DNA from: Elsinoe ampelina
Lineage: Eukaryota
Assembly: GCA_010093995.1 (NCBI GenBank)
Contig: ML992503.1
Span: 1 to 64,000 of the forward strand
Length of the DNA: 64,000 nt
Reading direction: 5' to 3'
Numbering within the stretch: position 1 is the stretch's first letter; the number at the start of each line of letters is the position of its first letter. This document shows, piece after piece, positions 1-64,000 of this stretch. The position numbers and the translations under genes were made by a program. The notes under the pieces are model-generated. The model did not search any database and was not told where the DNA came from. It worked only from the letters and a program-made list of their open reading frames with translations.

Positions 1-3000
1 GTTAGGAAGCTTAATTAGGAAGCCCCTAGTAGCCTTATTATTAGTTAGGAGACCTCTAAGGCGTCTTATAAGTCTAGAAGCCCTAGGACGTATAGAGGTA
101 AGGTTAGTAAAGAGGCGTCTAGAAGCTCTTTAGTAGTCTAGGACTTATGTTAGTTAGGATCGATTAGGAAACTTAGGAACACGTACTAGACAAGCTATAG
201 CTATAGTAATTATTCTAGAAGCTATAGTTAGTATAGGAGCCCCTTAGGAGCATAGTACTATTAGGAGTAGTTATAGTAACATAGGAGTTATATTTGCTAT
301 TCCCCTAAGCATAGGAAGTATACTTCTAACTAGCTAAGTAGATAGTATACCTAGAAGTGCTATAGACGAGCAGAGAAACTAAGTAGTTAGTGTTAGATCT
401 AGAAAGGTTTATAGTCGTTCTAGGAGTCCTTAGGTTAATAAGCTAGTTAAGCTAGAACTTAGAACTAGTCCTAGTAAAGACCTAGAGATTAGCGTTAACT
501 AGGGGTTTAACCTAGGCGTCTAGGGAATTACGCTAGGCTATATTAAGTCCCTAGAGATTAGCCTAGACCTACTAGGTAAAGGGAAGAGTTATAGGAACCT
601 AGGTATAGCCTAGAAGTGTTAGTGAAATTAGGATATATATTAGGGGCTTAGGGCTTACTTAGGGTATTTAGGTTAGTAACTCTGTCTCTAGTAGTAGCTA
701 GGAAGGTTATAGGAGTTCTAGTATGTAAGGCCCTAGGAGCTATAATAGTTACTAGGAGCGCTAGGCTTAGAAAGTTATTTAGGAAGGAAGGCAAAATTAT
801 AAGAGAGCTAGGAGGTTAGAACTAAAAGTTATAGTTAGTTAAGGTTCTTAGGAAGGCTTACATTTACTAAAGGTTCTTATTTAAGGCCTCTTAGTAGAGT
901 TAAAGCAGCAGAGATAAGATCTATAGGCTAAATAGAGCTATATATATTGCTATAAAGGCTACTAGGCTTGTTAGTGTAAAGGGCTACTAGGTATATCTAT
1001 CTCTTGCTAGTAAAAAGCTCTATAAAAGCTATAAAGGCTATAAAGGCTATAGGTAAGCTATAAAGCTAGTTCTTTCTAGAGCTAATTAGAAGCTGTTTAA
1101 TCTCTATAGTAGTATCTCTAGCTACTTTAACTCTCTTAAAGGGACTAGATAAGGATCTAGCTATAATAGAGTAAACTTACTATAATAAAGGTAATAAGAA
1201 GAGAAAGAAAGAAAGCTAGAGAGAATAAAAGAGATATATAAGATCTATAAGTCATGCTAGGTAGCTAGGTATATAAAACAAAGAGTAATATAATAACAAA
1301 GGAGTATATAAATATAGTATATAAAAGGCCTAGGTTATAATCCCTAGAGACTTAGGATATACTAACTAACGCCTAGCTACTAGAGGCTAAACTAGGAATG
1401 CTTACTAACAATTCCTTATAAAAGTTTATTATTGCCTAGAGTAATATAATAATAGGTAATACAATAGGAATAATAGCTTAAACTTTTAGATAGATAGACT
1501 TATAATTATAGCTCTATACTCTAGCGGAACTATAAGCCCTTAAGAATTCTATTCTAACTCCTGCTAATATAATATACTTACTAGATCTAAATCTAGTATT
1601 ATAAAAAGCTATTAAATATTAATCTAGCTGTCCTAAGAACTCTAGACTCTAGAAAATAATAGGGAAATACTAAGAGGTAGTTAGAAAAGATAAAGATAAG
1701 AGAGAAGGTAAGTATTTCTACTAAAGATCCTAGTTGTCTATTATTTAATTAAGGATTATAGGCTCTAGGATTTCCCTAATAACTCTAGGAGCAATATTTA
1801 TATATACAATCTAAGTACTATAGAGTTATTTATAATTCTTAGACCTCCTATTTACTAGGAAATTTATTTTGCTTTAATATATATTCTATGTCTATCTACT
1901 AGTCTACCTAGGCCTCTTTAAATTTATAAGGATGTTCTAGAGTTTCTAACTATTAGGAGTAAAGCTACTAAGACCTCTACTCTATATTTTCTTAGGAACT
2001 TTAAAAGATTTTTAGGATAGTCCTAGTATACTATAACCTAGATTCTAGGAGTAATACTCGATAATTCTAGATAATACTAAGTATTATAGAGAACCTAGGT
2101 AATATAAGTAATCTCTAAAAAATTTAGAGGGAAAAAATCTTAGAAAGTCCTAAAGAATAAAGGTTAGAAATCCTATTAGAATCTAGGAAAATACCCTAAC
2201 CCTGCTCTAGTAAAACTATTAGAATATACCCTTCCTTCTAAGATATATAGTGTCTAGGGAAGGTAGGTATTTCTACTAAAGATTCTAGTTGTCTATTATT
2301 TAATTAAGAATTATAGGCTCTAGGATTTCCCTAATAACTCTAAGAGTAATATCTATATATATAATCTAAGTACTATAGAGTTATCTATAATTCTTAGACC
2401 TTCTATTTACTAGAAAATTTATTCTACTTTAATATATATTCTATATCTATCTACTAGTCTACCTAGGCCTCTTTAAATTTATAGGGATATTCTAGAGTTC
2501 TTAACTATTAGGAGTAAAGCTACTAAGACCTCTACTCTATATTTTCTTAAGAACTTTAAAAGATTTTTAGGATAGTCCTAGTATACTATAACCTAGATTC
2601 TAGAAGTAATACTTGATAATTCTAGATAATACTAAGTATTATAGAGAACCTAGGTAATATAAGTAATCTCTAAAAAATTTAAAGAGAAAAAATCTTAGAA
2701 AGTCCTAAAGAATAGAGGTTAGAAATCCTATTAGAATCTAGGAAAATACCCTAACCCTACTCTAGTAAAACTATTAGAATGTACTTTTCCTCCTAAGATA
2801 TATAGTGTCTAGAAATAGTATACGAAGTATATCTACTCTCTACTCTATTACGTATAGAACTCTCCTTTAGTCTAGTAGAATCTATTAAATATATTAAGTA
2901 GTTTAGCTAGGGTCTAGAGCTATTATATAGAGATATAAAGCTCTCTTAATACTTTACCTTCTATTAGGCTAGAGTTAATAATCTTTAGACACCTTAGGAA

Positions 3001-5939: not shown

Positions 5940-6049
5940 AGGATGTTCGTAACGGGACAGATACAGGAATGATCTTCATGTTTACAAAGTCGATATATAG
6001 CGTTTCAAACTCCTATAAACCGCTAAAGGAAAATTGATTAGCACAAAAT

Positions 6050-7650
6050 ATAGCAGATCCGATAGAGCGCCTAGAAGACTAAACATTATATTGTTAGAAG
6101 GAGATAAATAAGAATAAATTCTAGATTCTAAATAATAGACAATTAAATAGGCTAGTATCCTCTACCTCTACCTCTACTACTATCTCCGCTGCCTCTACCT
6201 CCTTTATTACTACTACCTTAGCTCTCTATTATTACCCCTATACTAATTCCCTCTTCTACTATAACTAGCTTAGCTTCTCTAATTATACTACTAACTAGAC
6301 TAGTTATATACTTAGTATTCTTAGGCTCTTTAATATTAATATAAGGTACTAAGGGTTAATACTTATTAATAGAGTAGTTCTATAACTATAAAGCTAAAAT
6401 AATAGCTACTATAGTATCTTATATAGTAAAATATAATTACTTCTCGAAGTATAAGATACTTTTTAATATCTTATTATAGTTTTCGTCCTTCTTCTACTTA
6501 AGGATCTTATCTCTTATACTTAGACAATTCTTAAGATTAGCTTCTAAAGAGAGAGTTACTATATTACTATTAGAATTATTACTAGTAGTAGTAAGTTTAG
6601 TTATGTCCTTAAGTACCTAAATATAGTAGACTATAAACTTAACTATACTAATATGCTTTATATACTATATCTTAATCTATCTATACTTATATTCTCTCTT
6701 ACTTATTATAGCTTAGAAGGCTATATATATATAATTAGAAAGTTATTTCTATTAACTCTAAGTAGTACTATAAGTAGAGTTTCTAATAGTTAAATTACTT
6801 AAGAAGTAGCCTCTAAAGTATATAGTAGCGACGATAGAATCTAGTTTATTACTAGAGTAAAGAATAAAGACTTTATTACTAAAGCTTTAAAAAATATAAA
6901 ATAGATAGACGCTCTACTAAGTAGTTAATTAAATTAGTTATAGATTAAGATCTTATATATATATATAAAGCTTAAGTCTATAACTTTTAAGGCTAGTACT
7001 AAAGGGTACTATAGTACTTATTATATTTAGACTTAAATATATATATAACTAAGTTACTAGAGATACTTAAATAGACTTACTAGATAGGGAACTTATATTT
7101 AGTATTAAAATTAAAGTATAGCTAAGATAGTTTAGGTAAGCTATTATATATAATATAACTTAAGGCTATACTTATATATAGTATAAAATAAATAAAGTAT
7201 ATTAAGTATAGGTATATATATATATTTCTTCTAGTTATATAGGAATATTTAAGAATAAAGATAAGATTAAGATTATTTAGGTATACTAGTAGCTTTAAAT
7301 TCTTCTACCTAGATATTAAAGATATAAAGGCCTATATTCTTTATTAAATTTAACTAGTTTTTTATACTTAATTAGAAAGGTATAATAGATAACTAATTTA
7401 TATATTCTTTAATAACTAATAGTTAGTCTTCTAGTAGTACTTTTAACTAGCTAGACTAACTTAATAGTCTAATAAAGTAAAGTTAGCTTATTAAGGCTAG
7501 TTCTTTATACTTACTCTTATATTTATATATATAGATAACTAGTCTTTTTACTAGTCTTAGTAAATATAGAAGTAAACCTTATATAATACTTCTTATAAAG
7601 TACCTCTTCTACTACTTTCTTTTCTACTCTCTTTACTACTTTAATTATAA
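6050..7650 (-). mobile_element. RIP-degraded relic, possibly a hAT-like transposase
   Basis: After reversing RIP the minus strand reads TTGDNSDSN..WKKDEN..SIxCFxKQLHFAVQD, loosely like hAT TTDNASN / IxCxAHxLNLxVQD. The match is weak. Confidence 0.3.
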
Positions 7651-7699
7651 CTTTAATAGTACTACTAGCTAGCTAGCTAACCTTCTAAGTAACCTCTAT

Positions 7700-9060
7700 A
7701 GTATTATTAATACTAGTACTATAGCGATTTAATAGTAGCTAGACTAATAATATAGTCTCTATACTCCTTAGTTTCTTAGTAAAGGAGAAAGCTACTAGTA
7801 AATAAGCTTAATTTAGCTTTAAAGCTATTACCTTTTAGTAGTAATATAGCTTCTAAAAGCTAGTAATATAATAGAGAAGAAGATTTATAATAAGTATAGA
7901 GCTTTAAAGGAAAATTAGTCGAATTATAAGACGCTTTACTAATAGTTTAGTTAGATAGTAGATAGTAATAGTATACTATATACTAAGCCTTATATAATAG
8001 AGAAGTATTTTACCTTTTACTCTAGTACTTAAAAATTTAAATACTATAAGTTTAAGTAGCTAGATCTTAGTAATAAGCTTTAGAGTAATATTATAGCTAG
8101 TAGTAAGTATACTCTTACTTCTACTAATATACTTAAGGTTAGTAAGAAAGAAAAGAAGAATAGAGAGATATAATAAATAGTAAAAGAGTTAGATAAGCCT
8201 ATAAAATTTAGCTAGTCTTTAAGCCTTTACCTTATATAGCTACTCTTAATACTAGTAGCTTTCTTATATATAAGTATACTAGTAAGCTTAATACTTCTAA
8301 ATAAGAGATAGAAGATAGATAAGGTAAACTAAATAATATAAGCTATTTTTAATAAAATTAAAAGGTTAAATAAGATAGCTAAGAGACCTTTAGTAGTTAT
8401 ATAAGTAATAGCTAAATTTACTAAGGAGTTTACTTATCTTATACTAGCTATATTACGAAAATTCTAAAGCTTAGAAATGCTTAGAAATAGTAGTAATTAT
8501 TATATTTCTAGCATTTTTAGTATTTCTAGCTTACTCTATATCTTAGCTATTACTAGTACTACTAGCGCTTACTAGCAAGGCTAGCGCTTACTAGCTATTC
8601 TAGCTATTTTAGCTATTCTAGCTAAAATTTAAAAAAAAAACTCTATATATAATATAGTTTAGAATTAAACTTAAAGCTTTTTAGAATAATAAATTTTATA
8701 TAGTAGAAAAAGGAATTACTTATAAGTTATATACTTACCTACTTAGCTATAGAATATATATATTTTATAAAGAGAAATAAATATATATAATAGTTATTAT
8801 AAAAATTTAACCTTAAAGAAAAAAATTCTCTTTATACTAAAAAACTAGTACTATATTTCTAGTATTTCTAGTTATTCTACTTATTCTAGCTATTCTAGCC
8901 TTAGGATTTTTATAATATATAAAGATTAAAGCTTTACTAGCTTTAAAGAAAGTAGTAGAATACTAGCTTAAGTTAGATAATAGTATAAGATATAAGCTAG
9001 TAAGTAAATAGACTAACTTACTACTTATAATACTTATTAAAGATAAGATAGCTAGAGAGA
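7700..9060 (+). mobile_element. RIP-inactivated Myb/SANT-like ORF of a PIF/Harbinger transposon, interrupted by a MITE
   Basis: De-RIP reading from 7740: WTDDMVSILLGFL..GKQAQxGFK..KIHNKYGALKENWSNYKTL..SGW..EYF.FHPGARKFK, the typical pattern of the Harbinger partner protein. Confidence 0.7.
8449..8919. mobile_element. RIP-mutated MITE-like insertion (~470 bp) with ~25-bp TIRs and subterminal CTAGC-type repeats
   Basis: Left end tatattacgaaaattctaaagct matches the reverse complement of the right end tatattataaaaatcctaaggct with transitions only. Removing it, leaving one TA, rejoins the flanking ORF in frame. Confidence 0.65.
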
Positions 9061-9349
9061 TATAATAGAAGAAGAATAAAGAGCCTTTATAGCTTAAAGT
9101 TTACTTCTTATATAACTATTACTCTTTTAGGATAAATAGTAAAGTATTTTTTATAATTTCTTTAATTCTTTATACTTACTTATAATCTTTATTATATATC
9201 TAATTTAAATATAGAAGCTACTAAACGATTATTAAATAACTAAAAACTATTATTTAATTATACTAGATTATTTACTACTTCTTCTATTAACCTTAGCGCT
9301 ACTATAGCTTAAGCTAGTAATTATACTATATCTCTTTAGCTATCTTATT

Positions 9350-10450
9350 ATAATATTTAACTATATATATATTACTTTTACCTTTATCTATTAGATAGCT
9401 AATAGACTTAGAGAACTTATTAACCTTCTTCTTTTTCTTCTTCTTTACCTCCTTAAGATAGATAGCTATCTAAATACTTAGTAGAAAGTTATAAAGTATA
9501 GCTAGATAGTATACTATTTATACCTATATAAGTATTAAGAGGTACTTAAATCGCTTATCTAATATCTACTACTACCTCTTAAGTAGTCTAAAGCTTCTTT
9601 TAATAATATTATAGAGTTATAAATAGTATAAATTAAAAAGCTCTTTTAGATACTAAGGCTATTAGTTAGTAGCTTTATACTCTTAGAGGTAGTACCTTAT
9701 ACCTTAATAGAGTACTAAGATATTAATCCTATTACTATATCTAGTATTAGTAAGATAGTAAGCTCTCTTTAGAGTAGAGAAGCTCTTATTATAAGCGTTA
9801 GTAAGTACTTAAGTATTATATATAGACCTCTTCTATTCTAGTAATAGATAAGTAAACTTTATCTTATAGTTTATAACTACTAATATATTTTATAATAGAC
9901 TACCTTTTTAATTTCTCTAAGCTAATTACTTACTAAAAATATAAGTAGAAATATAAGTACTATTAAGAGCGCTAATATAGCTTTAGAAGTAAAGCTAAAA
10001 CTTATAATTTATCTAAATATCTAGTAGTACTTAGAGTATTATAATTAGTACTATATATTTATTATATAAAGAGAAGAGGCTTTATAAGGCTTAATAGAAG
10101 AATTAACTAACTATTTAAATAACTATACTAACCTTAGTAGCGATATAGTAATAGCTAGTACTAGTAGTAAGAATATAAAGAGTAATAAAGAGCTTATAAT
10201 AAGTAAGTAATTTATAGCTATTATTAAGTACTAGAGTAGTTATTATTAAGCGCTTATAGAGATAGTAGAAGAAGACTACTATATACTATATATACTACTT
10301 ATAGTTCTTATTAACCTTAATACTCTAGTTAATCTAGTTAAGGCTAAAGCTTTAAGTATTAAGCTAATAGTTACTAGTAATCTCTAGAGGTTTATATATA
10401 TTCTTTAACTAAGTAAGTAAAGTAGTAAAGAGAAGACTTATAAGAAGTAT
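9350..10450 (-). mobile_element. RIP-inactivated PIF/Harbinger DDE transposase
   Basis: De-RIP reading: LATGxSYRxIA..TVSRFFH..KFWPYFQGCIGALDGTHI..WRNRKGSLSQNVLAV..GWEGSAHD..YYLADAGY..PYRGVRYHL..KELFNLRHS.LRNVIERSFGLLKRRW.IL. Confidence 0.88.
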
Positions 10451-11333
10451 ATATAAGTAGTTATCTATAACTACTTAATTTAGTATACTAACTTATTAGT
10501 ATAGAGTACTATAACCTTATATCTCTTATAATACTAAATGTAATACTTATATAACTTTTTACTACCTTTCTAAGCTATAGAAGTATCTTAGCCCTATATC
10601 TCGGCCTTAGCTACTATTAATTTTATACTATTTATACTAATTATACTAAAAAAGACTAGCTCTACTAAAATACTAAAGATTAAAGGAGATAGTCTTTAAT
10701 ATAATACTTATTCTTATATCTCTACCTTCCTAAGATACTAACTTATAATTAGTTACCTTATAGGCCCTTAGTAAGGAGAGCTCCTAAGCGTCTAAGGAGT
10801 CCCTTTACTAGCTTTATTATAACTTATACTTTACTCTATCTAGTATATCTATAGTAGTAACTTTATATCGATGTTAACTACTAGGCACTAGATATGTATA
10901 TAGTAATAAAACAAAATATATAGACGTCTACAATAGCAGCCACGAGATGTCGTGCTTTTATAACTGTTTTCCGGCTTTGCTAGTCCTCTTCTAGTAATTG
11001 ACCCGGCCGACGGACTGCTTTTTCGTCCGCGTGCTTTTAAATTATCAAAAGTTGAAACAATCATCCTCGCGGCATTCGTCCTAGGGCTAATTAATGGCTT
11101 CACGAAATTCCTCCGATATTTGTCATCTGAGCGACCATGTCGCTCATGCAGATGGGATATGATTGCGCCGCAAAACATACAAGTATCGGTCAGCATGTGA
11201 GTATATATTTCAACTTGCGACCATCGTACGAGGGTTGGGCTAGGTCATGATCCTTATGCGAAAGCTATTGCCCTCTGACTGCATTACTACTTCTCGAGCT
11301 TGGTACAGGCAATTTTCCAATATCACACCCGCC

Positions 11334-34048: not shown

Positions 34049-35142
34049 ATGTCCCATGGCACCGTAGGACTCATATCGATATATATTGACAGCGTCGCTG
34101 ACTGATGAAAAGGACAATGACGTCGGCCCACTTGCGTCACTCGTAGCAGGAGGACTTGCAGGAGGGACTGAAGCCACCTTGACGGTAGGCTGAGAATCGC
34201 TCGATGAACTACCTGGTAATGACACGAACAGTACCCATTCGAATTCGCAAAGACTCGGGTACAGCTCAAAGTCGAAGCCGGAGCATCTACGAGCCGCAAT
34301 CCTTTCAAGGTCGTGGCTGATGTTGTGCGAGAAGAGGGACCTCGAGCATTGTACAAGGGCTGCGGCAGTCTGGTCATCGTGCGTGTCCTTTTCCGACCAA
34401 GATATTGTCTAGCTCACCAACTTCAAGGGCACTGTGGCAAAAGATGCCATTCGGTTTCTCACATTCGATCGGATCAAAGATGCCTTCAAGGACAAGGATA
34501 CAGGAAAGCTCTCCGCTGCCAACTCGCTTCTAGCTGGGATGTCGGCTGGCATAGTAGCCTCAACACTCGCCGTCACACCCACAGAGAGAATCAAGACTGC
34601 CTTGATCGACGATGCTCGTTCAAAAGGCGCACGCCGCTTTCGAGGAGCCATCCACTGCACGACGATCTTGATCGCGGAGAATGGATTGAAGGATGTCTAC
34701 CGAGGATATGTCACAACCACGCTCAAGCAAATGGGAACGACCACTTTCCGGTTAGGCAGTTACAGCATCATCAAGGATTACGAATCGACGAAAGGGATCG
34801 AGCAGACCACAGGTGTGAACTTTGCAAATGGAGCAGTCGCTGGTACCATCACCACCTATGCTACTCAAGTATGTCATCCGACTTGCACGCTCTCCACCGC
34901 GAGAATTTTGCTGACCATTCCAGCCGTTCGATGTGGTGAAGACCAGGGCTCAAAGCGCAAAAGGTGCCGGAACAGTGGAGGCATTCCAAAGCGTGATGGC
35001 AGACTACGGCGTGAAGGGACTCTGGAGAGGCACCACTATGCGTCTTGGCCGTACAGTCTTCGCAGGCGGTATCCTCTTCACAACTTATGAGGCCATAGTG
35101 AAAGTGATGAAGAGGGTTCTGCCTCAGTCGTCACTGACATGA
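34049..35142 (+). CDS. Mitochondrial carrier, tricarboxylate/citrate-carrier-like (CTP1-like), ~5 exons
   Basis: Three Px[DE]xxK motifs (YPFEFAKTR, TPTERIKT, QPFDVVKTR), plus KDAIRF and LWRGTTMRLGR. Confidence 0.85.
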
Positions 35143-35379: not shown

Positions 35380-35943
35380 AACCACTAGTCCTCAATGATC
35401 ACCAGTTGTGATGCTTGAGTCTTTCTTAGGTACGCATCTTCTGCAGTGTCCTTGTAGTCTTCTCGATCAGAATCGATGAATCCTGCTTTGGCTATCGATC
35501 GTGGGGTTATCATCAGCGAGCGGCCTTGATATGGATTAGAACTCAGTACAGTATCAGAAGTGTCAGGACGGGCCTACCGTTGATACTTCTGTCCGTGGCG
35601 ATCCTCATCATGCAGGCGGCACGATCGATCTGCTCCCCAAATTCAACGCCACGATCTACTAACCACTGCTCATACTCAGCAGAGCGGATTGCACTCTTGA
35701 TTCAGCATGGGGCCACGTAGTTGATGCGTATACCCTGCTCATGTGGATTGCGGCGTGCCGTGCGCATAAAACCTCGAAGGCCATACTTGGTGGCGGTGTA
35801 TCCCCAGTTGCCCTGCAAATTGTTAGTATGTAATGGTGCGGCTGCCAGAGCATGTATGTACCGGTGAGTCGATCCAAGCCACCATACTACCCGTGATGAT
35901 GAAACACCGATCCCTATCCTCAGTGTCCGGCTGTCGTCTAAGT
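35380..35943 (-). pseudogene. Short-chain dehydrogenase 3' half, 5'-truncated, with premature stops
   Basis: RQPDTEDRDRCFIITGSMVAWIDSP [intron] GNWGYTATKYGLRGFMRT..GIRINYVAPC*IKSAIR..D.SING [intron] RSLMITPR. Coding similarity ends abruptly near 35943. Confidence 0.8.
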
Positions 35944-36145
35944 TAGTGGAGATTCGGGCCTGGCGGGTCCGCAGGGCTGGGGCCCCTTGGGCGCTGCAAG
36001 CGCCCCAGCCACCACTCCAACAGTACATATACACGATATTTAGGCTGTCAAGGTACGGGTCGTCCTCCACTTCATCCGACTTGAATCTTCCATTGCTGTA
36101 CAATCCATTTCGTCTAGTGCTGATCTTTGAATATCCAACACCATC

Positions 36146-36875
36146 ATGGCTGTTCACCGCCAACAGAGCGTCACTGCCGTGCGCGCCATCTTGGATACGA
36201 ATTTGAATGAGAGCTTTGTCTGGGAAGCACTGCAAATGCCCGGCAATGGTGTCGCCAGGATCGATGATCGCCCTCTTCACAAAGGCCACAAAGCACTTGC
36301 CATGATCGGAGACGCGCACATGCGTGCCATCCTTGTTGAAAGCTTCTATCGCAGAGGCCTCACACCGGGTCTGTCACTTTTCAGTTACTTGATGTGCTTC
36401 ATCTTAATTGTGGTAGAAACCATCAACAACAACGCCCAGAGCCGCCTGGGTAACGAAGATCTCGCGGGGGTTTGCGATCGCCTCGGTTTGACGCAATATA
36501 TAAACATCAACCCGGCCAATAGGGGCGCTATTGGATGGCAAGTGAAGGCTGGCACTGTCGAAGCCCTGATCGGGGCCGCGTACCTGTCTGGAGGTAGTGC
36601 TCGCGCCAGAGAAATTATGACTGTCATGGGTCTGCTAGGTAACGTTACAATTCTATCCCATATACCGAGCTTCCATGCTCTTTACAACGAATCTAGGGAC
36701 AAATGCATTTACGCAGACGCTCCCGGGGTGGTCGACGAGAAGGCCCCCGATGCTCCCTTCGGGAAGGACTTCAGAGCGACTCACTTGGCATGTCTTGAGG
36801 GAACGATTCCGGCAGGCTGATGGACGGCAGTTCCTACTTCCTGCCGGGGTCTCTTCCCCCCGCCATGCGAGGTGA
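36146..36875 (+). CDS. Stand-alone RNase III-domain protein without a dsRBD (Mini-III-like); intron 36369-36416, probable second intron 36639-36696 (stop at 36875 if spliced, 36820 if retained)
   Basis: EAL..HKALAMIGDA (signature Asp), NEDLA and KAGTVEALIGAAYL (catalytic Glu). Both introns have GT-AG ends. Confidence 0.8.
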
Positions 36876-36946
36876 GATTCCCTCTCCAGTCCTTCCCGAA
36901 GGGAGCATCGGGGGCCTTCTCGTCGACCACCCCGGGAGCGTCTGCG
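36712..36946 (+). ncRNA. Long hairpin: perfect 59-bp inverted repeat (36712-36770 / 36888-36946) plus an imperfect inner stem and a ~23-nt loop
   Basis: cgcagacgctcccggggtggtcgacgagaaggcccccgatgctcccttcgggaaggact is the exact reverse complement of 36888-36946. Inner pairs are ctcacttggcatg/catgcgaggtgag and gattccggcagg/cctgccggggtc. The repeat is certain; RNA function is inferred. Confidence 0.65.
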
Positions 36947-37581
36947 CTCATGCCTTTCTTGAGGTCGATCTGCTCAGACGCCGCTGGCGCCGACTTCAGG
37001 ACTGACCTGTCCGTTTGGACTCTGCTCTTATGCAGAAAGGTCGAGTTCTGACAAGTCTCAGATGAACTCGATGGCCTGGTCGGATAGAAGACGAGGCGGA
37101 CAATTGTATGCGTTCTGCGGACTGACCCGAGTCACTCTTTCTTGCTGCGTATCTGCTTTCTCTGGTAGTTTGGGCTTCGCAAGATCTCGCCTTGTGGAGG
37201 CATGGGGGTAACACTTGCAAGCAGTAGCACAGTGATTCAACATCACTGTGAGGTTCCAATGGAAGTTCCTGTTCTCCACACTGTCTCTTTGAATCAGATT
37301 CGTCGCTGAATGTCCTCAACTCCCATAATCTGAAGGTTCGACTGAGACACAACGGAAGTGGTAGTGGTGAATCTGCCAACATGCTCCAGATCTGGGCTTC
37401 AAATAGCGAGTGACCAGCAAGTCATCTCGCCATACTGTGACTCCGGCGATAATGACCGGCTTTAGGAGATACGGTGACCACAAGTAAGCACATATACAGC
37501 ATGGTCATCCTCCACCACTGAAACACACTTGATAAGGGGCTTCCTAGCAGCTGAGCCCAAAGTTGATTGCAAAACGTCAAG

Positions 37582-38065
37582 ATGGCCGACCTAGCTGCAA
37601 CCATGCGGGCAACTACCGAAGGCTTCCTCTACTCCTTCAATGGGGACTGGCAGCCAGATGCCACTCTCGCCTACCGCTCTGAAAATTGCAAACATGTCTT
37701 TCTTCCTGCCTCGATCGGTACGCCCGAGAAGACCAAAGGCGAATGGGCAGCCTACTTCAAAAATGTCGCACCTCTCGTTAAGGACGCAAAGGTGCGCATC
37801 CCTCTCCGCACGAGTCAAGCTTACTGACAAATCACAGATGACTATCAACGACTACCTCGCTAGTCCGGCGGAGCGGAGAGCAATATGTCGCTCCTCCATG
37901 ACGGCCAGCACAGCTGCTGGACCCTTTAACAATGAGTACGTCTGGTTCCTCACCTTCGACGAGACGGGGAAGCAAATCACTCGCATCGAGGAGTTCCTAG
38001 ATAGTGCAGCGACGCAGGAGATCAGGGCGAGGTTTCGGGATGCAGGGTTGTTGCCGAAGCATTGA
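37582..38065 (+). CDS. Small SnoaL/NTF2-like protein (AusH/Trt14-like), 2 exons
   Basis: RSENCKHVFLPAS and GPFNNEYVWFLTFDETGKQITRIEEFLDS. Intron ~37792-37838. Confidence 0.8.
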
Positions 38066-39674: not shown

Positions 39675-40604
39675 GGCTGTGTGAGAAACTGGTCATGGCA
39701 CACCGCAGACATCTTACCATCTTTGTATATTCAACCCCTCACTATACCTACCGTCATCGTTCGCTGGAATTGTGACCGAGCAAGAAAGGTTTGCGGTCCA
39801 TGTGGGCTTTATCCATGTGAAAAGGTCCTCGTAGCTCGATAAACTTGCCTGGTCCAAGGATGAAGTCCGGCTGTTTCCAATCTGGATGGCATCATGGCCT
39901 TTTGTGCGGAGAGGATCGACATGCCCCGCCAAATATTTTGTCCACCTGGCAGTTCCGTGGAAAAGACAGTGCGTCATTTGGCAGAGAAAGAGCTTGTCGG
40001 CTATTGAAAATCGGTGTCGACCCAGAGTCCCTCACCAAGGCTCTGCAGCCCTCCTACGAGAGAGAGCACCCTTGCCATTCACATTTCAACAGACGACAAA
40101 CCTCACGCCGTCGCGAGTAATGACCACTGTGGCCGGCATGGTCAATGATCCTGACCGGTTGGTAAGGCGGCTCAAGGACAAGCCATAGTCCTCCATTGCC
40201 CGGCCGAGGCTGAGAAGAGGTGATATTCCAGCAATTTGGGTCAGGACTCTGCGACTGACCTGTCATGAAACCTTCCAAAATGTGCCCTGGAGGGATTGAT
40301 GTAGGGTGTGTCCGTATACCATGCCTGGTCAGCATCGGCACATCAAGGATATCCCGGCCTCAATATCCAAGTCGTCTGGAGGTCATCTGGAAAGATAGGC
40401 TGGAGATGAGGTGGATTCGATCGACCGGATGGTGGATGAAGAAGCACCGAGTTGTTTGGGACGTGATTGGAGCGACGAGGTGCCAAGGACGTCGGATCTC
40501 GACCGATTTTGATACCAAAACGCCTCTCCCAATTTCCGGAGATGAGACCGTCTACTTTTTTTCTCATTTTCTCGCCCTCTGCCTCGCCCTCGACCCATTT
40601 TAAG

Positions 40605-41017
40605 GGGAATTGTTATCGAGTGACCGCGTTTTGGTTATCGAGTAGCCGCAGTAACTGTTTCTGGATTAGACTTTTTTAGTAACGTCCACAACGAAATTTT
40701 GACAGTTTTTCTATGGCCGAGCTGCAGCCCGGGTTTTTATGCGTATATCGTCTCCCCCGGTTGTCTGTCTCCCCCGGCTATCTGTCTCCCCCGGCTATCT
40801 CCTCCGGCTGTCTCTCCTAGCTGTCCGGCTACCTCCTCTTTAGCTACTAGCTACTTTCTCTCTGCCTCTCGATATAGGCTATAAGACAAGCTATATACGT
40901 TGATCGCCATGTACGGAGAATTTAAGGTTCTGATATGCGGGGTTAGCCGCGACTTGTCTGAAAACGGTTACTGCGGTCACTCCATAACCAAAACGCGGTC
41001 ACTCGATAACAATTCCC
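40605..41017. mobile_element. 413-bp non-autonomous Mutator-like MITE with ~55-bp TIRs and a 9-bp TSD CATTTTAAG
   Basis: Both ends read gggaattgttatcgagtgaccgcgttttggttat in inverted orientation. CATTTTAAG is duplicated at 40596-40604 and 41018-41026. Internal tctcccccggct repeats are present. Confidence 0.9.
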
Positions 41018-41377
41018 CATTTTAAGTCCCGTCCATGTCCTTTTCCTGAAGCACTCGACCAATCCGGAGCGACTCGAAACAGACTCGTCGCTAGGCCGTC
41101 ACACGCGCTTGTTGCAAGTCTCCGTCTTTACCCAGTGATGCTTAAGCTGTGCCGCAGACGCTTCATTTCCCATGCTCTTAGGTCGTGGGGACTATCCCGG
41201 CCTTTGCAACTTGGCCCTGCAGGGCCTGCCATAAAGGTTGTGATCCGGTCAGAGATAACGTTGATTGATGTGGATCCATGGTAAGGTATATCTCTGATCA
41301 CTTCCCGTTTGCTGTCAACAGTGGCGCACAGCACTTTCTCACCCCAGTCACTCGTTTTTCAGTGTGTCTTCACGCAA

Positions 41378-57834: not shown

Positions 57835-59250
57835 TACTTACGAGCGTTACCCCCCTCCGAGCAACCTGGCGATCGAGCTCGCTTAGTTAACCCGATACGG
57901 AGCGGGACCGCGCGTCGCTGAGAAACGAGCGTATTGGAGCTCTAGAATCTTCGCTGATATTTGGCTTAAATAGGCAATTAAAATATCCTCCGAATTGCTT
58001 ATTATACTTAACTCCTCTATAAAAATACCTCTCTACTATAAGCTCTATAACTATACCTTTATAACGCTATAAAGCTACAATTTCTAGTGTAATTAATGAA
58101 TTAAATAGTTCTTAAGGATCTCTTACATATTTAGAAGCCTTATAACATTACGCTAGAGTATACTATATAACTATAGTATATTAAATTTCTAGATAGTAGA
58201 AGCTATAGTCTAAGGCATTTACTTAATATTAATAACTTATACTAGTATAAGAAGGCGCTCTAGTCTATTACATTAAGTGGCTTATTAATACTAGCTTCTC
58301 TCCGGATTAAACTACTATTAATAAGCTTACTTTCTAGATATTAGAGTAAGATTAAAAGAATAACTCCTTAGTACCTTAATACTAGTAACCTTAATCTATT
58401 AGTAAAAGGTAGTTTTATAAGTTCTTTAAATATTACCTAGAGCTTACTTTAAAGCGTATCTAAGCCCTAGATAGTATAAGAGCTAATTACAATTAAGATC
58501 TAGAGTTAATAAAGTTATAGTTTTAAACACTAGAGGCGACTATTAATAAGTATAATATTAAGCTAGAGAACGTTTATAATATAGATAAGACTAGATATAT
58601 AATAGGTTAAACCGGTATAATTTAGTTAGTTATTTAGTAAGGCACTTATAATTTAGTTTATTATTAACCTAGTAATCGAACGTAGACTATAACTATTAAA
58701 ACTCTTAGTGCTAACAGCTATTAAGTGCCTCTATATATTATTCTTAAAGGTAGTAATATTAACATTAATTAGAGCTAGTAGCTTACCTTACTCTTACTAG
58801 AAGATAGTATATAGTATAGTAAAATTATAGTCTCTACTAATAGCTAGTTAGACAAGAAGTATACTATTAAGTAGCTTAATCTATTCTATAAGTATATAAG
58901 GCCTAAATATCTAGAATTAAGGTAAAAGGTAGTAGATAAGGATCTTTAACACTATAAGTAACTTCTTATAATAGATAGCTATAGTACTTATAAGTTACTA
59001 GCCTTTTTATAAAAGGCTTAAAAAGAGACAGTAGTACTTCTTCTACTACTCTCTTATTTAATATACCTCCTTTAGCCTCTTAATATATTAATCTTTATAT
59101 TACTTAAAGCTACCTATTAGAGAGAGATATAAGCTAAGGCCTTTATAGCTATAATAGAGTATCTAGATAGAGTAGGTATAATGTCTCTAGAATAGAGAAG
59201 CGATAGAGAAGAAGTATATACTATATAAATATAATAATAAATTTCTAACC
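57835..59250 (+). mobile_element. RIP-inactivated pogo/Fot1-type (Tc1/mariner superfamily) transposon, 3'-truncated
   Basis: De-RIP reading: YNIxPENVYNMDETG (~58551), PGNRTW.T.IE..PPYIILKG, STNGWSD, LLIMDGHGTH and LPSHSTHLLQPLD. A GC-rich putative terminal sequence lies at ~57835-57930. Confidence 0.88.
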
Positions 59251-59259
59251 TCTCTATAG

Positions 59260-62200
59260 AAGATTAGGAACTACTACTATATATACTATATAGAATTATA
59301 GCTAGAACAATGTATCTCTAACGTCTATCTACTAGCTATAAGTTTATAGTTCCTATTATAATTGCCTTCTTCTCTATAGACCTATTCTTAGGCTAGTCCC
59401 TTATTAAAACTCTTTAGTAGTAGGGAAAGAGTAGACTACCTTCGAAGCGTCGTTACGCCGTATATAGAGGTCTATATATAGGGTCTTAGCATTAGGTAAG
59501 GAATGTAAAGTATAGCCCTACTCGACTTTATATATAAATTTACCTTACCTAGTATATATAATAACGTTGTTCTCTTATCTCCTAGCTACTATTATACTAG
59601 CTATAATAATAATTAGTAGACTACCTTATTTCTTCTCGTATTTTTCTTCTCTTAATTAGTGTAAGAGCCTTCTATTGTCCGTAATAATAGAATAATAGAA
59701 CAATAGAACGCTTTAATATATATACGAGGCTTTTCCCTTATTAAAATATCTTCTTCTCTTTCTTCTAAAAACCCTTTTACTAAAGTATAGCTCTCTACTC
59801 TCTACCTTATATTTTATACTAATATCTCCTAGTATCTCTCTAATATCTTATTGTCTTTTCTCCGCTATTAGGAACCTTCTTTTAATATGTCTTCTCTAGT
59901 AAGTACTACCTCTAGTAGACTTAACTATAGCTAGATCTAGCGCAAAGGTACTCTACTATCGTCCCCTAGTTACTCTAACTCTGTCCTTATTAAGAAGAGT
60001 CCTTACGTTAACTGCCTTAAGCTCTCTACTAAGTATATAACGTCGGATAACTCTAACTTTACTAATAACTCTTGCTACTATAAGGAGTAGAATAACTATA
60101 CCTTCTACTAGCTCTATAAGCTCTACTATAATAGCTATACCTTTATAGGTCTAATGTCTATTCTATATCGAAGTAATACTAATATTTCTAGTTTCCTAAG
60201 TGCTATAATACTAAGCTTAATACTACTAAAGTTACCTACGAGGCTATCTATATCTACTATTATAATAATAAAGATAAGTACTTAGCTACTATACTCTTCG
60301 ACAAGTAGTGCGTTTATAGCGCCTATACTATAATAGTAGAATATATTACTACTCTTAAGGCTAAATGTATTTCCGCTAAGAAGAAGAGAAAGAGAGGAGA
60401 ATCTAACTCTAATAATAATTTGCCTACGACCTATAAGGACTTTACTGCCTTACTTACTAGTAGCTAAAAGACTAACGAGTTATTAGTAAGGATTATTAGT
60501 ACCTAGCCTACTAGGAAGGCTCTTGCCTACGCTACTATACTAGCCTCTAGTAGTACTACTAGTAGAGCTTAAGAGATTTAGGAAGTTAGGGTAGTTACTA
60601 GTATAGTCTTTAGGTTTCTAGGTATAAGTATAGGTTCCTTAGTCGATATAATAGCTTAAAGCTATTAGAGATAGATTTTGCCTTTTAGAGTTTATAGAGT
60701 TTTTTGCTTTCTACTTCTTCTTTTTGCCTAAGTCTTTTATTTTATAGCCCCTAGCGAAGCTATAGCTCTTAGATCGCTCTTACTTCTTTATTAGAGGCCT
60801 ATTATCCCCTTAGGTATTATTATATTATTAAGGGTCTATTATCGAGGTAAGTATTATTAAGAAGAGTATTGTTGTTTAGATAATAGAGAAGCGATATATA
60901 TATACTATCTTCTCTCTCTTTCTCCTTAATCTCCTTAGACTCTTTATTCTCTCTATCTACTCTACTTCTATACTATAATATTAGAATTCTATAGTATTAC
61001 GACCTACTATATCTCTACTAATTAGATTAATAACTCTAGCTACGCTATGTCCTTTAAGTCTCTAGAGATTACTAATGTTATTATAGAAGTAATATATCGT
61101 CTTAGATTTAGTAGAGACTTCTCTAGTAACTATAACTATAACTATAGTAAGAGCTCTAAGCCTAAGTTCCTATAGTTCTAGACCTCTTCTAACTATGCTA
61201 CGCTAGTGTACTACTATTAGTATAAGTCTTATATTTACTACTAGACTACCCTATACCTCGACTGTAAGTAGGCCTAGTTCTAATATATTTATAATAACGA
61301 CGTAGGCACTTTTCTCCGCTACTATCTCTATTAATACTTCTATACTAAATATGTCTTTATATATTTTTGTTCTATATTATCGCTATAATAGCTAACTTAT
61401 AGTAGTACGACGTCTCTTACACTTTGCTTATTAAGAGTCTTATTTTAACCTAGTATATCTTTAATACTACTATTTATATTTAGGAGTCTAACGAAGATAT
61501 AATAGAGTCCCTACGTAGTAATCTTATCCTTAAGCTAGCGGAGCTAGATAAGCCTAAAGATTTAGAGGATAGAGTTAAGATAGACCTCTTGTAATCTACT
61601 AGTGTTATATTAGAGATACGTTATTAAGTCGACGTTATACTTTTTTATAACATAGACTTACTTTTTTAAATCTTAATCTTATACTATTCCCTTATCTCTC
61701 TCTTTCTCTATAGTGTAAGTTTAAGCTCTTTAAGCCTTATAAGCTTCTTACTTAATATAGTATTACTTCGCTATTATGCTTAGAATAAGACTCTTCTTCT
61801 TAAAGTTCTTAATTTTACTAATAGTATTCTATAGATACTCTATTAGCTCCTAGCTAGCTTCTTCTTTAGAATAGCCTTTCTAGAGTACCTTATAGTAAGT
61901 CTTATCTCTAATAAGGCTTTTATTAACTACCTCTTTAACCTTATATTCTTCTTCCCCCTTAATCTCTACTAGTAGTAGAGTAATATTATTACCTTATTAA
62001 TAAGCCTTAAGGAGAGATACGTAAAAGGTTAAGTAGATTAATTTTATATATACTAGAAGATTAAGTTAGTATACTTAGTAGCCTACTATCTTAGCGATAG
62101 TAAATAGACCTATAAACTTCGCTACTAGCTTCTTCTTTAGCTAGAGAGACTAGAGGTTCTTAGTACTTAGTATAACTTCTTAGTCTTTCTTAAACCTTAT

Positions 62201-64000
62201 TAGCTAGTACTTCTTATTATAGTACACCTTCTACTACGTAATAGTGTTAAGCCTATACTACTTAAGTTCTTCTCTTATGTCTTATAGAGCCTTTACTCTT
62301 ACTTCTACTACTAGTGCTTCTAGTAGTTATAGAGCTACCTTCTTCTCTATAGCGTTAGTCTTAACGTTATTAGAGAGATATAGAACTATTCTATAAATAT
62401 AGCAAAGTAGGCTTACCTCTAGCGACGCGCTATAGAAGCTATTATAGGCAAACTCGGCCTAATATAGCTAGTATAGCTAGTTATCTTAGTAGAAATTAAT
62501 AAACACCCTTAGGTACTATTTAATTATCTAGTTCTACCTCTCTATAGCGCTATTAGTTTAAGAGTAGAACACTATTAAGAGGCGTCTCTAGACCTTCTAT
62601 CTCTAGTAGAGAAACGTCTAAAATTTAGACTTAAATAGAGTACCTCTATTAGTAATCTAGCTTCTTAAGAACCTATAGCGACTAAGAATCTCTCTCTCTA
62701 TAATATTAGCTAACTCTCGGGCCTTTATATCTTTTCTTACTAGAACGTATCTAACATATTTAGATACTCTATCTACTAGCACTAAAATTAAATTAGTAAT
62801 AGAGCTCTATTAGTCCTTTGCTAGAGGTAAATTAGTAATAAAGTCTATTAACTAATACTAGAGTACTTCTCTAATAGAGAGTAATCTTAGAGCCTATATT
62901 TTACTATAGAGCTAATGTCGAGGAACCTTTATTCTTTAGTACTTATTATAGTAATTTACATATCTAGTAACATCTATTGTTATACCTTTCTAATAGTACT
63001 TCTACTTTAGTATAAAGAGTATCTTTTCTATTTCGAGGTAGCTTACTATTAGATTATTATAATTCCTATAGAGTATCTCTATAGTTAGTATTTTTATAGC
63101 TAGGATAAAGACTTTATCTTAAAATAGTAGAACGCTATTGTCTTACTATCTTTAGCTTTCTCTCTTAGTAGTCTCTCTTTCTTTAGGATTACTAAGACGC
63201 TTTAGCGTTGTCTCTACTATAGTATCTCGCCGCTATAGCCTCTTTACTAGGCTAAGTAGCCTTAGTAGCGCCTCTTTATATATATTGTCTTCTTTCGTAG
63301 CTATTGCGTATAGATGTCTAGAGCTAGTAAGTTCTCTATAATCTCTCTATAATCTCTTTACTATAGTTATCTATAGGGAATAGCAAAAGGAACTACTTAC
63401 CTCTAGGGGAGTAAACCTACTATCTTTACCCTTATAGAGAGCTATCTTAGCTTCCGCGTCTATATCTAGTATCTCGCCTTAGGCTATAATACTCTCTTAG
63501 GTATCTTTAGATCTCCTAGTATACTCTACTTTACTATACTATCTCGGCAAGGAATCCTTAGTAACTACTAAGTTTATATCTAGTATTTTACTCTATACGT
63601 CTTAGGTTAACTTAACTTACTTAGCTACTATTATAGCGTTAAGGAGAAGACGTCTCTCTAGCCTCTTATATAAGTCTCTTAGAACCTATAGGTATAAGTC
63701 TACCTTAGCTTACTTATCTCTAGTATCTAGGTCTAGTCTCCTTAATAGTCCGTTAGTAGAATTAAGCTTCCCCGAGTTATAGGTAATCTAGATATTATAT
63801 TATAATAGCTCTTTACTAATATAGGTCTATCGAGCTAAGAGTATCTTAGTTATTAAGAAGTATTTTAGGTTATTATAATTTATAAATATAGTAGTAGTAG
63901 AAGAAATAGAAAAGAGATACTACTACTAGTAGCGTACTACCTTAAGGATAGTAAGTAGCTCTTAGTTATATATAGGCTAGTTTAACTCTACTCTCTATAG
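59260..64000 (-). mobile_element. RIP-inactivated Ty3/Gypsy chromovirus (RNase H, integrase, chromodomain), continuing beyond the window; left boundary approximate
   Basis: De-RIP minus strand: ELLAI..W..YL..TDHNNLKYF..GKLN.ADGLSRRPD (~64000-63720), H.DP..GHL..KT..YYW.GM..C.KCQR.K..SMDFIT.LP (~63080-62820) and YKVLWKGY..EEASWE..EHL.N (~61900-61820). Confidence 0.88.

Follow-up and report, generated by a model that had tools for sequence, protein, structure and literature searches.

A stand-alone gene for a protein with a ribonuclease III (RNase III) domain in the fungus Elsinoe ampelina very probably forms a conserved unit with a long hairpin in the 3' part of its own transcription unit. Both lie in the first 64,000 nucleotides of contig ML992503.1 (GenBank assembly GCA_010093995.1, forward strand), the stretch analysed here and hereafter called the window. 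RNA contigs show expression of the gene with its first intron spliced out, and the comparison of homologous loci shows that position, size and pairing of the hairpin have been kept in distant relatives despite changed sequence. The arrangement is best read as a control of the messenger RNA (mRNA) through the hairpin, which would be exerted either by the encoded enzyme or by Dicer.

According to the list of open reading frames (ORFs) of the window, the ORF runs on the + strand from the ATG at 36146 to the TGA at 36818-36820. Intron 1 is removed in contigs from three out of three RNA-like runs, which stem from three studies (X3, X4 and X5), so that these runs contain complementary DNA (cDNA) and the gene is expressed. 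The contigs start at 36070-36102, read through the donor at 36639 and end at 36655, 36685 and 36703; they restart past the hairpin, at 36966-37367 in X3, 36971-37268 in X4 and 36964-37278 in X5 (contig depths 352.6/260.7, 22.8/4.4 and 7.7/5.1, in this order). The parts of the transcription unit are the following:

36070..36145, + strand: 5' untranslated part; RNA-like contigs begin at 36070 (X3), 36098 (X4) and 36102 (X5), and contigs cannot fix the true start.
36146..36368, + strand: exon 1 of the RNase III-domain gene with the signature HKALAMIGD; ORF, RNA contig cover and 80% identity to the orthologue P0002 of Elsinoe batatas.
36369..36416, + strand: intron 1, 48 nt, GT..AG, in frame; joint 36367>36416 skipping 48 nt (cut +1) in X3, X4 and X5, absent from P0002.
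36417..36638, + strand: exon 2 with the remaining RNase III core (..GTVEALIGAAYL..VMGLL), from alignments; family homology stops here and profile matches end at about position 148.
36639..36696, + strand: putative intron 2 of 58 nt, with GTAACGTT as donor and CTAG as acceptor; a homologue of the intron in the 3' untranslated region of relatives, unspliced in the RNA contigs.
36701..36782, + strand: 5' arm of the hairpin with the perfect core 36712-36770, translated within a tail of 60 amino acids (aa); inverted-repeat scan and fold.
36783..36875, + strand: inner degenerate fold-back and apical loop, with the TGA (36818-36820) of the intron-retained frame; fold and inner repeat.
36876..36957, + strand: 3' arm of the hairpin with the perfect core 36888-36946; inverted-repeat scan and fold.
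36976..37035, + strand: possible second 3' intron (GTCGAT .. CTGAC .. CAG), a weak candidate from its likeness, read by eye, to the TCTGAC..YAG motif of relatives; unspliced in the RNA contigs.
36964..37367, + strand (assigned; RNA contigs carry no strand): transcribed stretch beyond the hairpin without a convincing ORF, from RNA contigs X3, X4 and X5.

The last of these stretches, whose ORFs have no Pfam match on either strand, is most simply taken as the 3' untranslated end of the RNase III mRNA, and the common restart of the contigs at 36964-36971 in three studies is a weak hint in favour of the unit. The missing RNA cover from 36704 to 36963 is no evidence by itself, because cDNA synthesis can fail on a very stable stem and k-mer assemblies break at inverted repeats. 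The RNA contigs have no loose ends at this gap, and a DNA contig of a relative (X12) runs through it. Sampled-word shares were 0.54-0.56 in the RNA-like runs, about what their contigs alone give, and 0.99 in DNA runs of the same species; hairpin words are thus absent from the RNA-like assemblies. For an antisense ORF at 36784-37131 the homologue search gave seven candidates, none of them significant.

In the window, the hairpin is built from an inverted repeat with arms of 82 nt (36701-36782 and 36876-36957), which are 90% complementary and 93 nt apart, and the whole fold-back is about 260 nt long. Its perfect core of 59 base pairs (bp), in which 36712-36770 pairs with 36888-36946, adjoins degenerate inner and outer parts, and a further inverted repeat inside it (36780-36816/36840-36876) is 70% complementary. 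The fold of 36690-36970 reaches -208.9 kcal/mol against -111.1 +/- 5.7 for shuffled sequences (z -17.1, none of 200 shuffles as good), which together with the repeat scan bears out an earlier first-pass annotation, made from the letters of the window, that had described a fold-back with a perfect 59-bp stem directly behind the ORF. Its remark that the 5' arm lies inside the reading frame whichever way the second intron is handled also holds, with a stop at 36818-36820 when intron 2 is retained and at 36873-36875 when it is spliced. A 54-nt core occurs twice in the 64-kb window, namely in the two arms (0.00 occurrences expected by chance). No clear target-site duplication was seen by eye at the ends of the hairpin, and a search of positions 35500-38000 against Rfam 15 gave no match.

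Homologous loci were gathered in one metagenome scan with a 10-protein alignment, which yielded 35 loci with 95,552 nt in total. Seven of these, cut short or with a match confined to exon 1 (L001, L010, L011, L018, L032, L034 and L035), were left out; sorting gave 16 loci from seven lineages with a hairpin and 12 loci from nine lineages without one. Perfect repeats longer than 13 nt were not found downstream in the homologous loci, an apparent refutation of a conserved hairpin that was reversed by mismatch-tolerant scans. These revealed arms of 58-61 nt (83-87%) starting 107-112 nt past the coding homology in L005 and L012, and weaker ones in L006, L008 and L025, while an ungapped scoring scan of all 95,552 nt gave downstream hits at +107 to +185 in L003, L005, L009, L012-14 and L016. 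Sliding 260-nt folds over 16 distinct loci and the window (1223 segments) placed the most stable segment of the locus at +56 to +142 past the coding homology in seven of the 16 (z -7.0 in L012, -5.3 in L003, -4.2 in L005, -3.6 in L019, -3.1 in L006, -2.9 in L015 and -2.6 in L028), and the window itself has its value of -6.7 at +84. The first-pass annotation had proposed to look downstream of homologues for a hairpin at a common position with diverged sequence, and had held that its absence there would speak against a system; seven of the 16 distinct loci carry such a hairpin.

The homologous hairpins form nearly continuous stems, 230-280 nt long, with folding energies of -122.9 to -189.7 kcal/mol (shuffle z -16.5 for L012, -8.3 for L015 and -9.1 for L028), and arm identity in the other lineages is 69-81%. 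They are internal to long contigs, and the L012 form is identical in four independent assemblies, so that they are no assembly artefacts. The closest named proteins of the hairpin loci belong to lichen-forming Lecanoromycetes (Puttea, Xanthoria) and, for L015, to Pseudogymnoascus; with Elsinoe included, the closest named relatives of the hairpin bearers come from three classes. In the protein tree the Elsinoe clade stands apart from the lichen clade, but this tree is weakly resolved (21 of 43 inner branches open) and too weak to date the origin of the hairpin. The distribution among these loci would fit an old feature with repeated loss. A tblastx comparison of L012 with the other loci found no conserved downstream protein gene.

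Some homologous loci show further peculiarities. Tandem extra copies of RNase III-like genes occur in L005 (301-762), L023 (1106-1318, 2242-2412) and L027 (147-393, 1501-1719). The L028 hairpin recurs in identical form in L027, ahead of a second copy that has none, and gene copies of both kinds thus stand side by side. The strongest repeat overall lies about 900 nt upstream in L030 (774-865/1160-1251, also in L033), with 92-nt arms about 294 nt apart; it belongs to one lichen-type lineage and is separate from the downstream hairpin.

The hairpin is embedded in a recurrent layout. In the hairpin loci the stop codon is followed after 20-30 nt by an intron-like segment of about 70-75 nt, with a donor GTAACGT, a branch-like block GCTATGCGAGTTAACGTGACCG and an acceptor TCTAG, and then within a few nucleotides by the hairpin. 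The GTAA donor is invariant in nine of nine aligned sequences, including the window (GTAACGTT at 36639) and the hairpin-less L004, and this conserved donor together with the layout in relatives points to splicing of the putative intron 2 (36639-36696). A TCTGAC..YAG motif 20-40 nt past the hairpin resembles the end of another intron; it is common to five lichen-type loci and loosely matched by the window. The hairpin may be a small 3' exon flanked by two introns, or it may be part of a single intron of about 390 nt. Two side observations concern the putative 3' intron itself. A block GCTATGCGAG(T/C)TAA(C/T)GT(G/A)AC is present about 20 nt ahead of the hairpin in L012, L019, L006, L005, L028 and L003, and this GCTATGCGAG block is far better conserved than the hairpin sequence and exceeds the needs of a branch site. 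The donor GTAACGTTAC is itself palindromic in the window.

Conservation of pairing was evaluated in nine sequences from five lineages; the hairpins of the window, L003 and L015, whose MAFFT alignment to the lichen group was unconvincing, were left out. RNAalifold predicted 68 pairs, 42 of them with compensated double changes. The share of paired cells was 90.0% compared with 72.4% in shuffled and 36.6-49.6% in slid alignments, and the 42 pairs changed on both sides compare with a mean of 27.0 after shuffling and 6-11 after sliding. None of 500 shuffles reached the observed values on either measure, in a control that ignores relatedness and with a structure derived from the same sequences. Compensatory changes are thus above the controls, as is characteristic of a conserved structured RNA. 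For the strand, each 5' arm was aligned to the reverse complement of its own 3' arm under a scoring that ignores wobble. On the + strand the transition mismatches comprised 66 G.U against 35 A.C in eight lineages (p 0.003), or 50 against 32 without L019, the orthologue of L012 (p 0.06), and one U.G pair is invariant in nine of nine sequences. This mismatch pattern moderately favours an RNA folded from the gene's own strand.

Comparison within the genus was made with contig X12, which is colinear with the window over 36157-37518 with five indels, none of them between 36404 and 37168, so that the relative has the entire fold-back region. The amino-acid differences between P0001 and P0002 are explained by X12 substitutions in seven of seven cases among those listed, so that P0002 is usable as the X12 translation. 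P0002 implies at least six changes within the 59-nt 5' core in E. batatas, and since the contig (k=31) passes the palindrome, the arms of the relative are presumably imperfect. The perfect 59-bp stem of the window is probably a recent homogenisation of its two arms.

The only recognisable domain of the encoded protein is RNase III (PF00636). With intron 1 still translated, the window ORF scores 25.3 bits, under the cut-off of 27, while the spliced orthologue P0002 (208 aa, 80% identity over the full length) scores 32.0 bits, and ten of 13 family members scanned exceed the cut-off. Pfam scans of the window ORF and the orthologue gave no match to a double-stranded RNA (dsRNA)-binding domain (dsRBD), a helicase or PAZ, as the first-pass annotation had described for this compact ORF. 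Compared with solved structures, a profile of 45 family members is closest to the RNase IIIa domain of Drosha (E 1.8e-20), followed by bacterial RNase III (E about 1e-16). The protein is probably a homodimer, as judged from a model with a score of 0.80 (best of three controls 0.00), in which at least 97% of the contacts agree between runs and the partner has a predicted local distance difference test (pLDDT) value of at least 89; the modelled interface involves residues 42-78 and 130-131 and passes through the signature helix. Among proteins solved as pairs, 21 of 30 attained the pass mark for dimers, and among those solved as single chains none of 23 did (for eukaryotes, 17 of 29 and none of 30, respectively), but RNase III dimers have already been solved, and the model's pass may reflect memory or likeness.

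An exhaustive profile search recovered 565 cluster representatives at E <= 0.001. Among the best 150 of these, most are about 145-170 aa long and matches end near profile position 148 ('..VMGL'). The named members that were looked up belong to Pezizomycotina, measure 147-153 aa and are either labelled hypothetical or bear an automatic 'RNase III' name; they come from Sphaceloma, Elsinoe australis, Myriangium, Acrodontium, Colletotrichum, Xylaria, Hyphodiscus, Xanthoria, Puttea and Pseudogymnoascus, and those closest to the window gene are from Elsinoe. Sequence past position 148, i.e. the 60-aa tail, is confined to the window protein and P0002, which differ at 14 of 60 aa in the tail and at 15 of 148 in the core. 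Taken together with a nucleotide divergence of about 10% between the window and X12 (132 differences in 1362 aligned bases), this indicates that the tail is near unconstrained. In relatives the stop codon lies 0-30 nt ahead of the GTAA donor; this usual stop ahead of the putative 3' intron is missing in the window and in E. batatas, so that the frame continues into the 5' arm of the hairpin and adds the tail. By this comparison, the coding overlap with the hairpin is a lineage-specific stop loss outside the conserved design, and for annotation purposes the tail of the Elsinoe proteins (208-224 aa) would be a read-through into a structured RNA element and no protein domain. One family representative of 820 aa (P0078) has a C-terminal RNase III-like domain and an integrase H2C2 zinc-binding domain (PF17921), which suggests a fusion with a retroelement-derived gene.

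Self-targeting hairpins that give negative feedback are known from the leader of E. coli rnc, from the mRNA hairpins of Drosha/DGCR8 and from miR838 in intron 14 of Arabidopsis DCL1. As in rnc, DGCR8 and DCL1-miR838, a gene of the RNase III machinery here would carry within its transcript a duplex of a type on which the enzyme family acts, and the hairpin, like that of DCL1/miR838, would belong to a non-coding part of the pre-mRNA that is associated with an intron. The fungal enzyme differs from these in being a stand-alone domain of 150 aa with two of four catalytic acids, and the fungal hairpin is far longer (about 100 bp) and lies 3' of the coding region, with cleavage only inferred. The first-pass annotation had known of no fungal system with this layout, and full-text searches of the literature, supplements excluded, likewise found no fungal example or description of it; the module is absent from passages of PMC12663654 and PMC9757828.

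The family also invites comparison with minimal or atypical RNase III enzymes. Mini-III, the class IV RNase III of Bacillus and plastids, is a lone catalytic domain without dsRBD that can cut dsRNA, according to passages of PMC8136814 and PMC4357697. The likeness to Mini-III suggested by the first-pass annotation extends to this architecture, i.e. an RNase III catalytic domain alone without dsRBD or any other Pfam domain, but not to kinship: no Mini-III chain is among 42 matches in the Protein Data Bank (PDB) at E <= 0.01, the best being Drosha and bacterial class I domains, and the present family is fungal. Mini-III matures 23S ribosomal RNA and is not known to carry a hairpin of its own. R3B2 of Mucorales (Mucoromycota) is another fungal RNase III-like protein with an incomplete acidic cluster; passages of PMC8136814 describe it as an atypical homodimeric RNase III of a non-canonical RNA degradation pathway, which differs from the present family in having two dsRBDs, cuts only single-stranded RNA, and is presented there without a linked hairpin.

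These likenesses lead to the following proposal. Filamentous ascomycetes would possess a two-part unit, which consists of an RNase III-domain protein of about 150 aa and a hairpin of about 100 bp (230-280 nt), which the same transcript would contain in its 3' part, just past a conserved putative 3' intron. The hairpin would be a cis-acting dsRNA target, through which the encoded RNase III-like protein would bind or cut its own message, and the outcome would be a negative feedback as in E. coli rnc, Drosha/DGCR8 and Arabidopsis DCL1/miR838, which an abundance of other dsRNA could relieve. By analogy with these systems, we tentatively put the chance that the encoded protein acts on the hairpin and so gives feedback at somewhat less than even. 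A more far-reaching version, which we consider unlikely, is an ancient self-contained module, in which a minimal RNase III-like dimer and a decoy or target duplex of about 100 bp in its own message would work as a dsRNA-sensing homeostat, or in which Drosha-like, Dicer-independent cropping would yield small RNAs. In such a homeostat, the protein would degrade its own mRNA or keep it sequestered as long as foreign dsRNA is absent; viral or transposon dsRNA would titrate the protein, so that the mRNA would escape and the nuclease rise. The first-pass annotation had regarded enzyme and substrate as encoded in one unit, and conserved position and covariation speak for this part of its claim; the mechanisms it proposed, namely self-cleavage, small-RNA generation and toxin with antidote, are hypothetical.

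Through the hairpin, the widespread stand-alone RNase III family of Pezizomycotina (565 representatives) gains a first concrete candidate substrate, and a covarying hairpin of about 100 bp tied to the gene offers a directly testable regulatory circuit. Long endogenous hairpins are moreover natural test cases for the handling of self dsRNA by fungal RNA interference. If the feedback or sensor reading is true, a minimal fungal enzyme would share the principle of rnc, Drosha/DGCR8 and plant DCL1, and plant pathogens as well as lichen fungi would seem to have a dsRNA pathway that does not depend on Dicer; the homeostat or the cropping reading, if true, would mean a new arm of fungal RNA-based defence or regulation.

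Several points weigh against such a unit or against the action of the enzyme on it, and the first concerns the catalytic residues. The acidic cluster of RNase III consists of four residues (E40, D44, D107 and E110 in A. aeolicus) that hold two metal ions, as given in passages of PMC8136814. When the family profile (consensus GNKxLAxxGD ... TVEAIIGAVY) is aligned to the Drosha segments HNERLEFLGD, ANCFEALIGA and ADLLES, two of the four acids are seen to be kept, the equivalents of D44 (IGD) and E110 (VEA); Ala stands in place of E40, and most family members have Gly or Ala in place of D107. The first-pass annotation had read the same pattern from the window protein, and the full four-acid cluster expected of a catalytically competent RNase III is not present. 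In E. coli RNase III the equivalents of the two missing acids are the less essential ones. Judged from its residues, the protein may bind instead of cutting, or cut weakly, and the missing acids weaken the feedback reading.

Further objections arise from the distribution and the expression of the hairpin. Nine of the 16 distinct loci (L002, L004, L017, L020, L022, L023, L025, L027 and L031) have no such hairpin and nothing beyond z -2.2, and on the protein tree the trait needs at least four changes, two of which are forced by well-supported branches; the unit is therefore dispensable. The hairpin is bridged by no RNA contig, the contigs carry neither strand nor ends, and neither putative 3' intron is spliced in the Elsinoe contigs. 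Conversion between the arms at the DNA level can mimic covariation, the excess of G.U is modest and uneven (5:6 in L028, 8:7 in L005), and by the argument from X12 and P0002 the perfect stem is not shared even by a member of the same genus.

The rival explanations rank as follows: small RNAs made by Dicer come first, then a structure that other factors would recognise, then a DNA palindrome. The first, which is rather unlikely but still the best of them, holds that the hairpin is a small-RNA precursor (hairpin small interfering RNAs or microRNA-like RNAs) of the ordinary Dicer pathway and that the RNase III gene merely provides the host transcript; the protein would be at most an accessory 'cropping' factor, and feedback on the host mRNA a by-product. 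The imperfect stem of about 100 bp, with its conserved pairing and G.U pairs, does resemble a processed hairpin, its context in most relatives is a non-coding 3' exon or intron, and the protein lacks two catalytic acids; the absence of hairpin words from RNA assemblies with deep flanks is a weak hint in the same direction. Against Dicer processing, an Rfam search of six loci gave only a match of L003 to MIR5185 below the gathering score (36.1 vs 101.7 bits) and the window gave none, no target is evident in that the hairpins have no further match within the loci and the window, and it is left unexplained why the host is always an RNase III-domain gene. Passages of PMC9757828 furthermore describe confirmed fungal small-RNA hairpins as very short.

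A cis-regulatory structure that works without any RNase III, through use of the flanking putative introns, nonsense-mediated decay, export, translation or another dsRNA-binding protein, is decidedly unlikely. It draws on the position of the hairpin between two intron-like segments with conserved splice-type motifs and on the fact that these segments stay unspliced in the Elsinoe contigs in which intron 1 is spliced; besides, conservation of a structure does not by itself name the reader of that structure. Such a role gives no reason for the exclusive tie to one RNase III-domain family, and a duplex of about 100 bp far exceeds the elements that typically control splicing or translation, which are far shorter.

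Improbable, in turn, is a DNA palindrome without RNA role, i.e. an old inverted duplication carried along with the gene, in which arm conversion keeps the symmetry and the extended ORF is accidental. A perfect core beside degenerate parts, along with the differences in the E. batatas 5' arm (at least six of 59, from P0002), would fit recent homogenisation, the tail evolves at a near-neutral rate (14 of 60 aa), and the hairpin has been lost in many relatives. DNA symmetry does not predict the excess of G.U over A.C on the transcribed strand or the invariant U.G pair in nine of nine sequences, and a mere palindrome sits uneasily with a hairpin that has persisted at a single site past the same intron in fungi with closest named relatives from three classes, and with the lack of a second copy in the window or in the approximately 95.5 kb of loci.

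The remaining proposals, a nuclease toxin with RNA antidote, a drive or selfish element, or a multi-copy miniature inverted-repeat transposable element (MITE) or introner-like element, are most improbable: the patchy distribution of the hairpin across the family tree, the tandem extra gene copies in L005, L023 and L027 and a 17,338-bp difference between two Elsinoe genomes that begins just upstream of the gene could be cited for them, but the hairpin is single-copy in every sequence examined, no target-site duplication is clear by eye at its ends, it holds an orthologous position with a sequence that has diverged, quite unlike young multi-copy elements, and nothing points to toxicity. MITEs, fold-back and introner-like elements of Dothideomycetes likewise have long inverted repeats and stable folds and sometimes occur in genes or as introns; they are multi-copy, near-identical and scattered over unrelated genes. 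The hairpins of eight lineages, by contrast, match nothing but their own orthologues in the window and the loci, and are found at one orthologous position in one gene family, diverged with compensated pairs. Identity with a MITE, which the first-pass annotation had named as a possible refutation, or with an introner-like element is disfavoured by the single copy in the window and the loci and by the lack of a clear duplication at the ends, and nothing was found in favour of its toxin-antidote or drive idea.

Upstream of the RNase III gene lies a gene for a mitochondrial carrier (34413-35142, + strand; PF00153, 64.1 bits), followed on the - strand by a fragment of a short-chain dehydrogenase (35400-35930), which covers the YxxxK region, scores 25.7 bits against PF00106, just below the cut-off, and stops abruptly some 200 nt ahead of the RNase III gene. 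At about 35940-36010 the sequence is GC-rich and contains small palindromes. In this same interval the X12 contig has 17,338 bases between the positions corresponding to 35930 and 36157 of the window, a structural difference at the promoter of the gene. Downstream, a gene on the + strand without Pfam match begins at 37582; its RNA contig starts at 37535, about 170 nt from the end of the RNase III transcript region.

A second inverted repeat in the window (40604-41018, GGGGAATTGTTATCGAGTGACCGCG...) has 57-nt arms that are 93% complementary and 301 nt apart, and looks like a small terminal-inverted-repeat element. On a larger scale, AT-rich blocks at 1-3000, 6000-11000 and 58000-64000, with a GC content of 0.22-0.37 and low-complexity TA-rich repeats, flank a gene-bearing stretch of about 47 kb with a GC content of about 0.5-0.57, and these blocks look like repeat regions degraded by repeat-induced point mutation (RIP).

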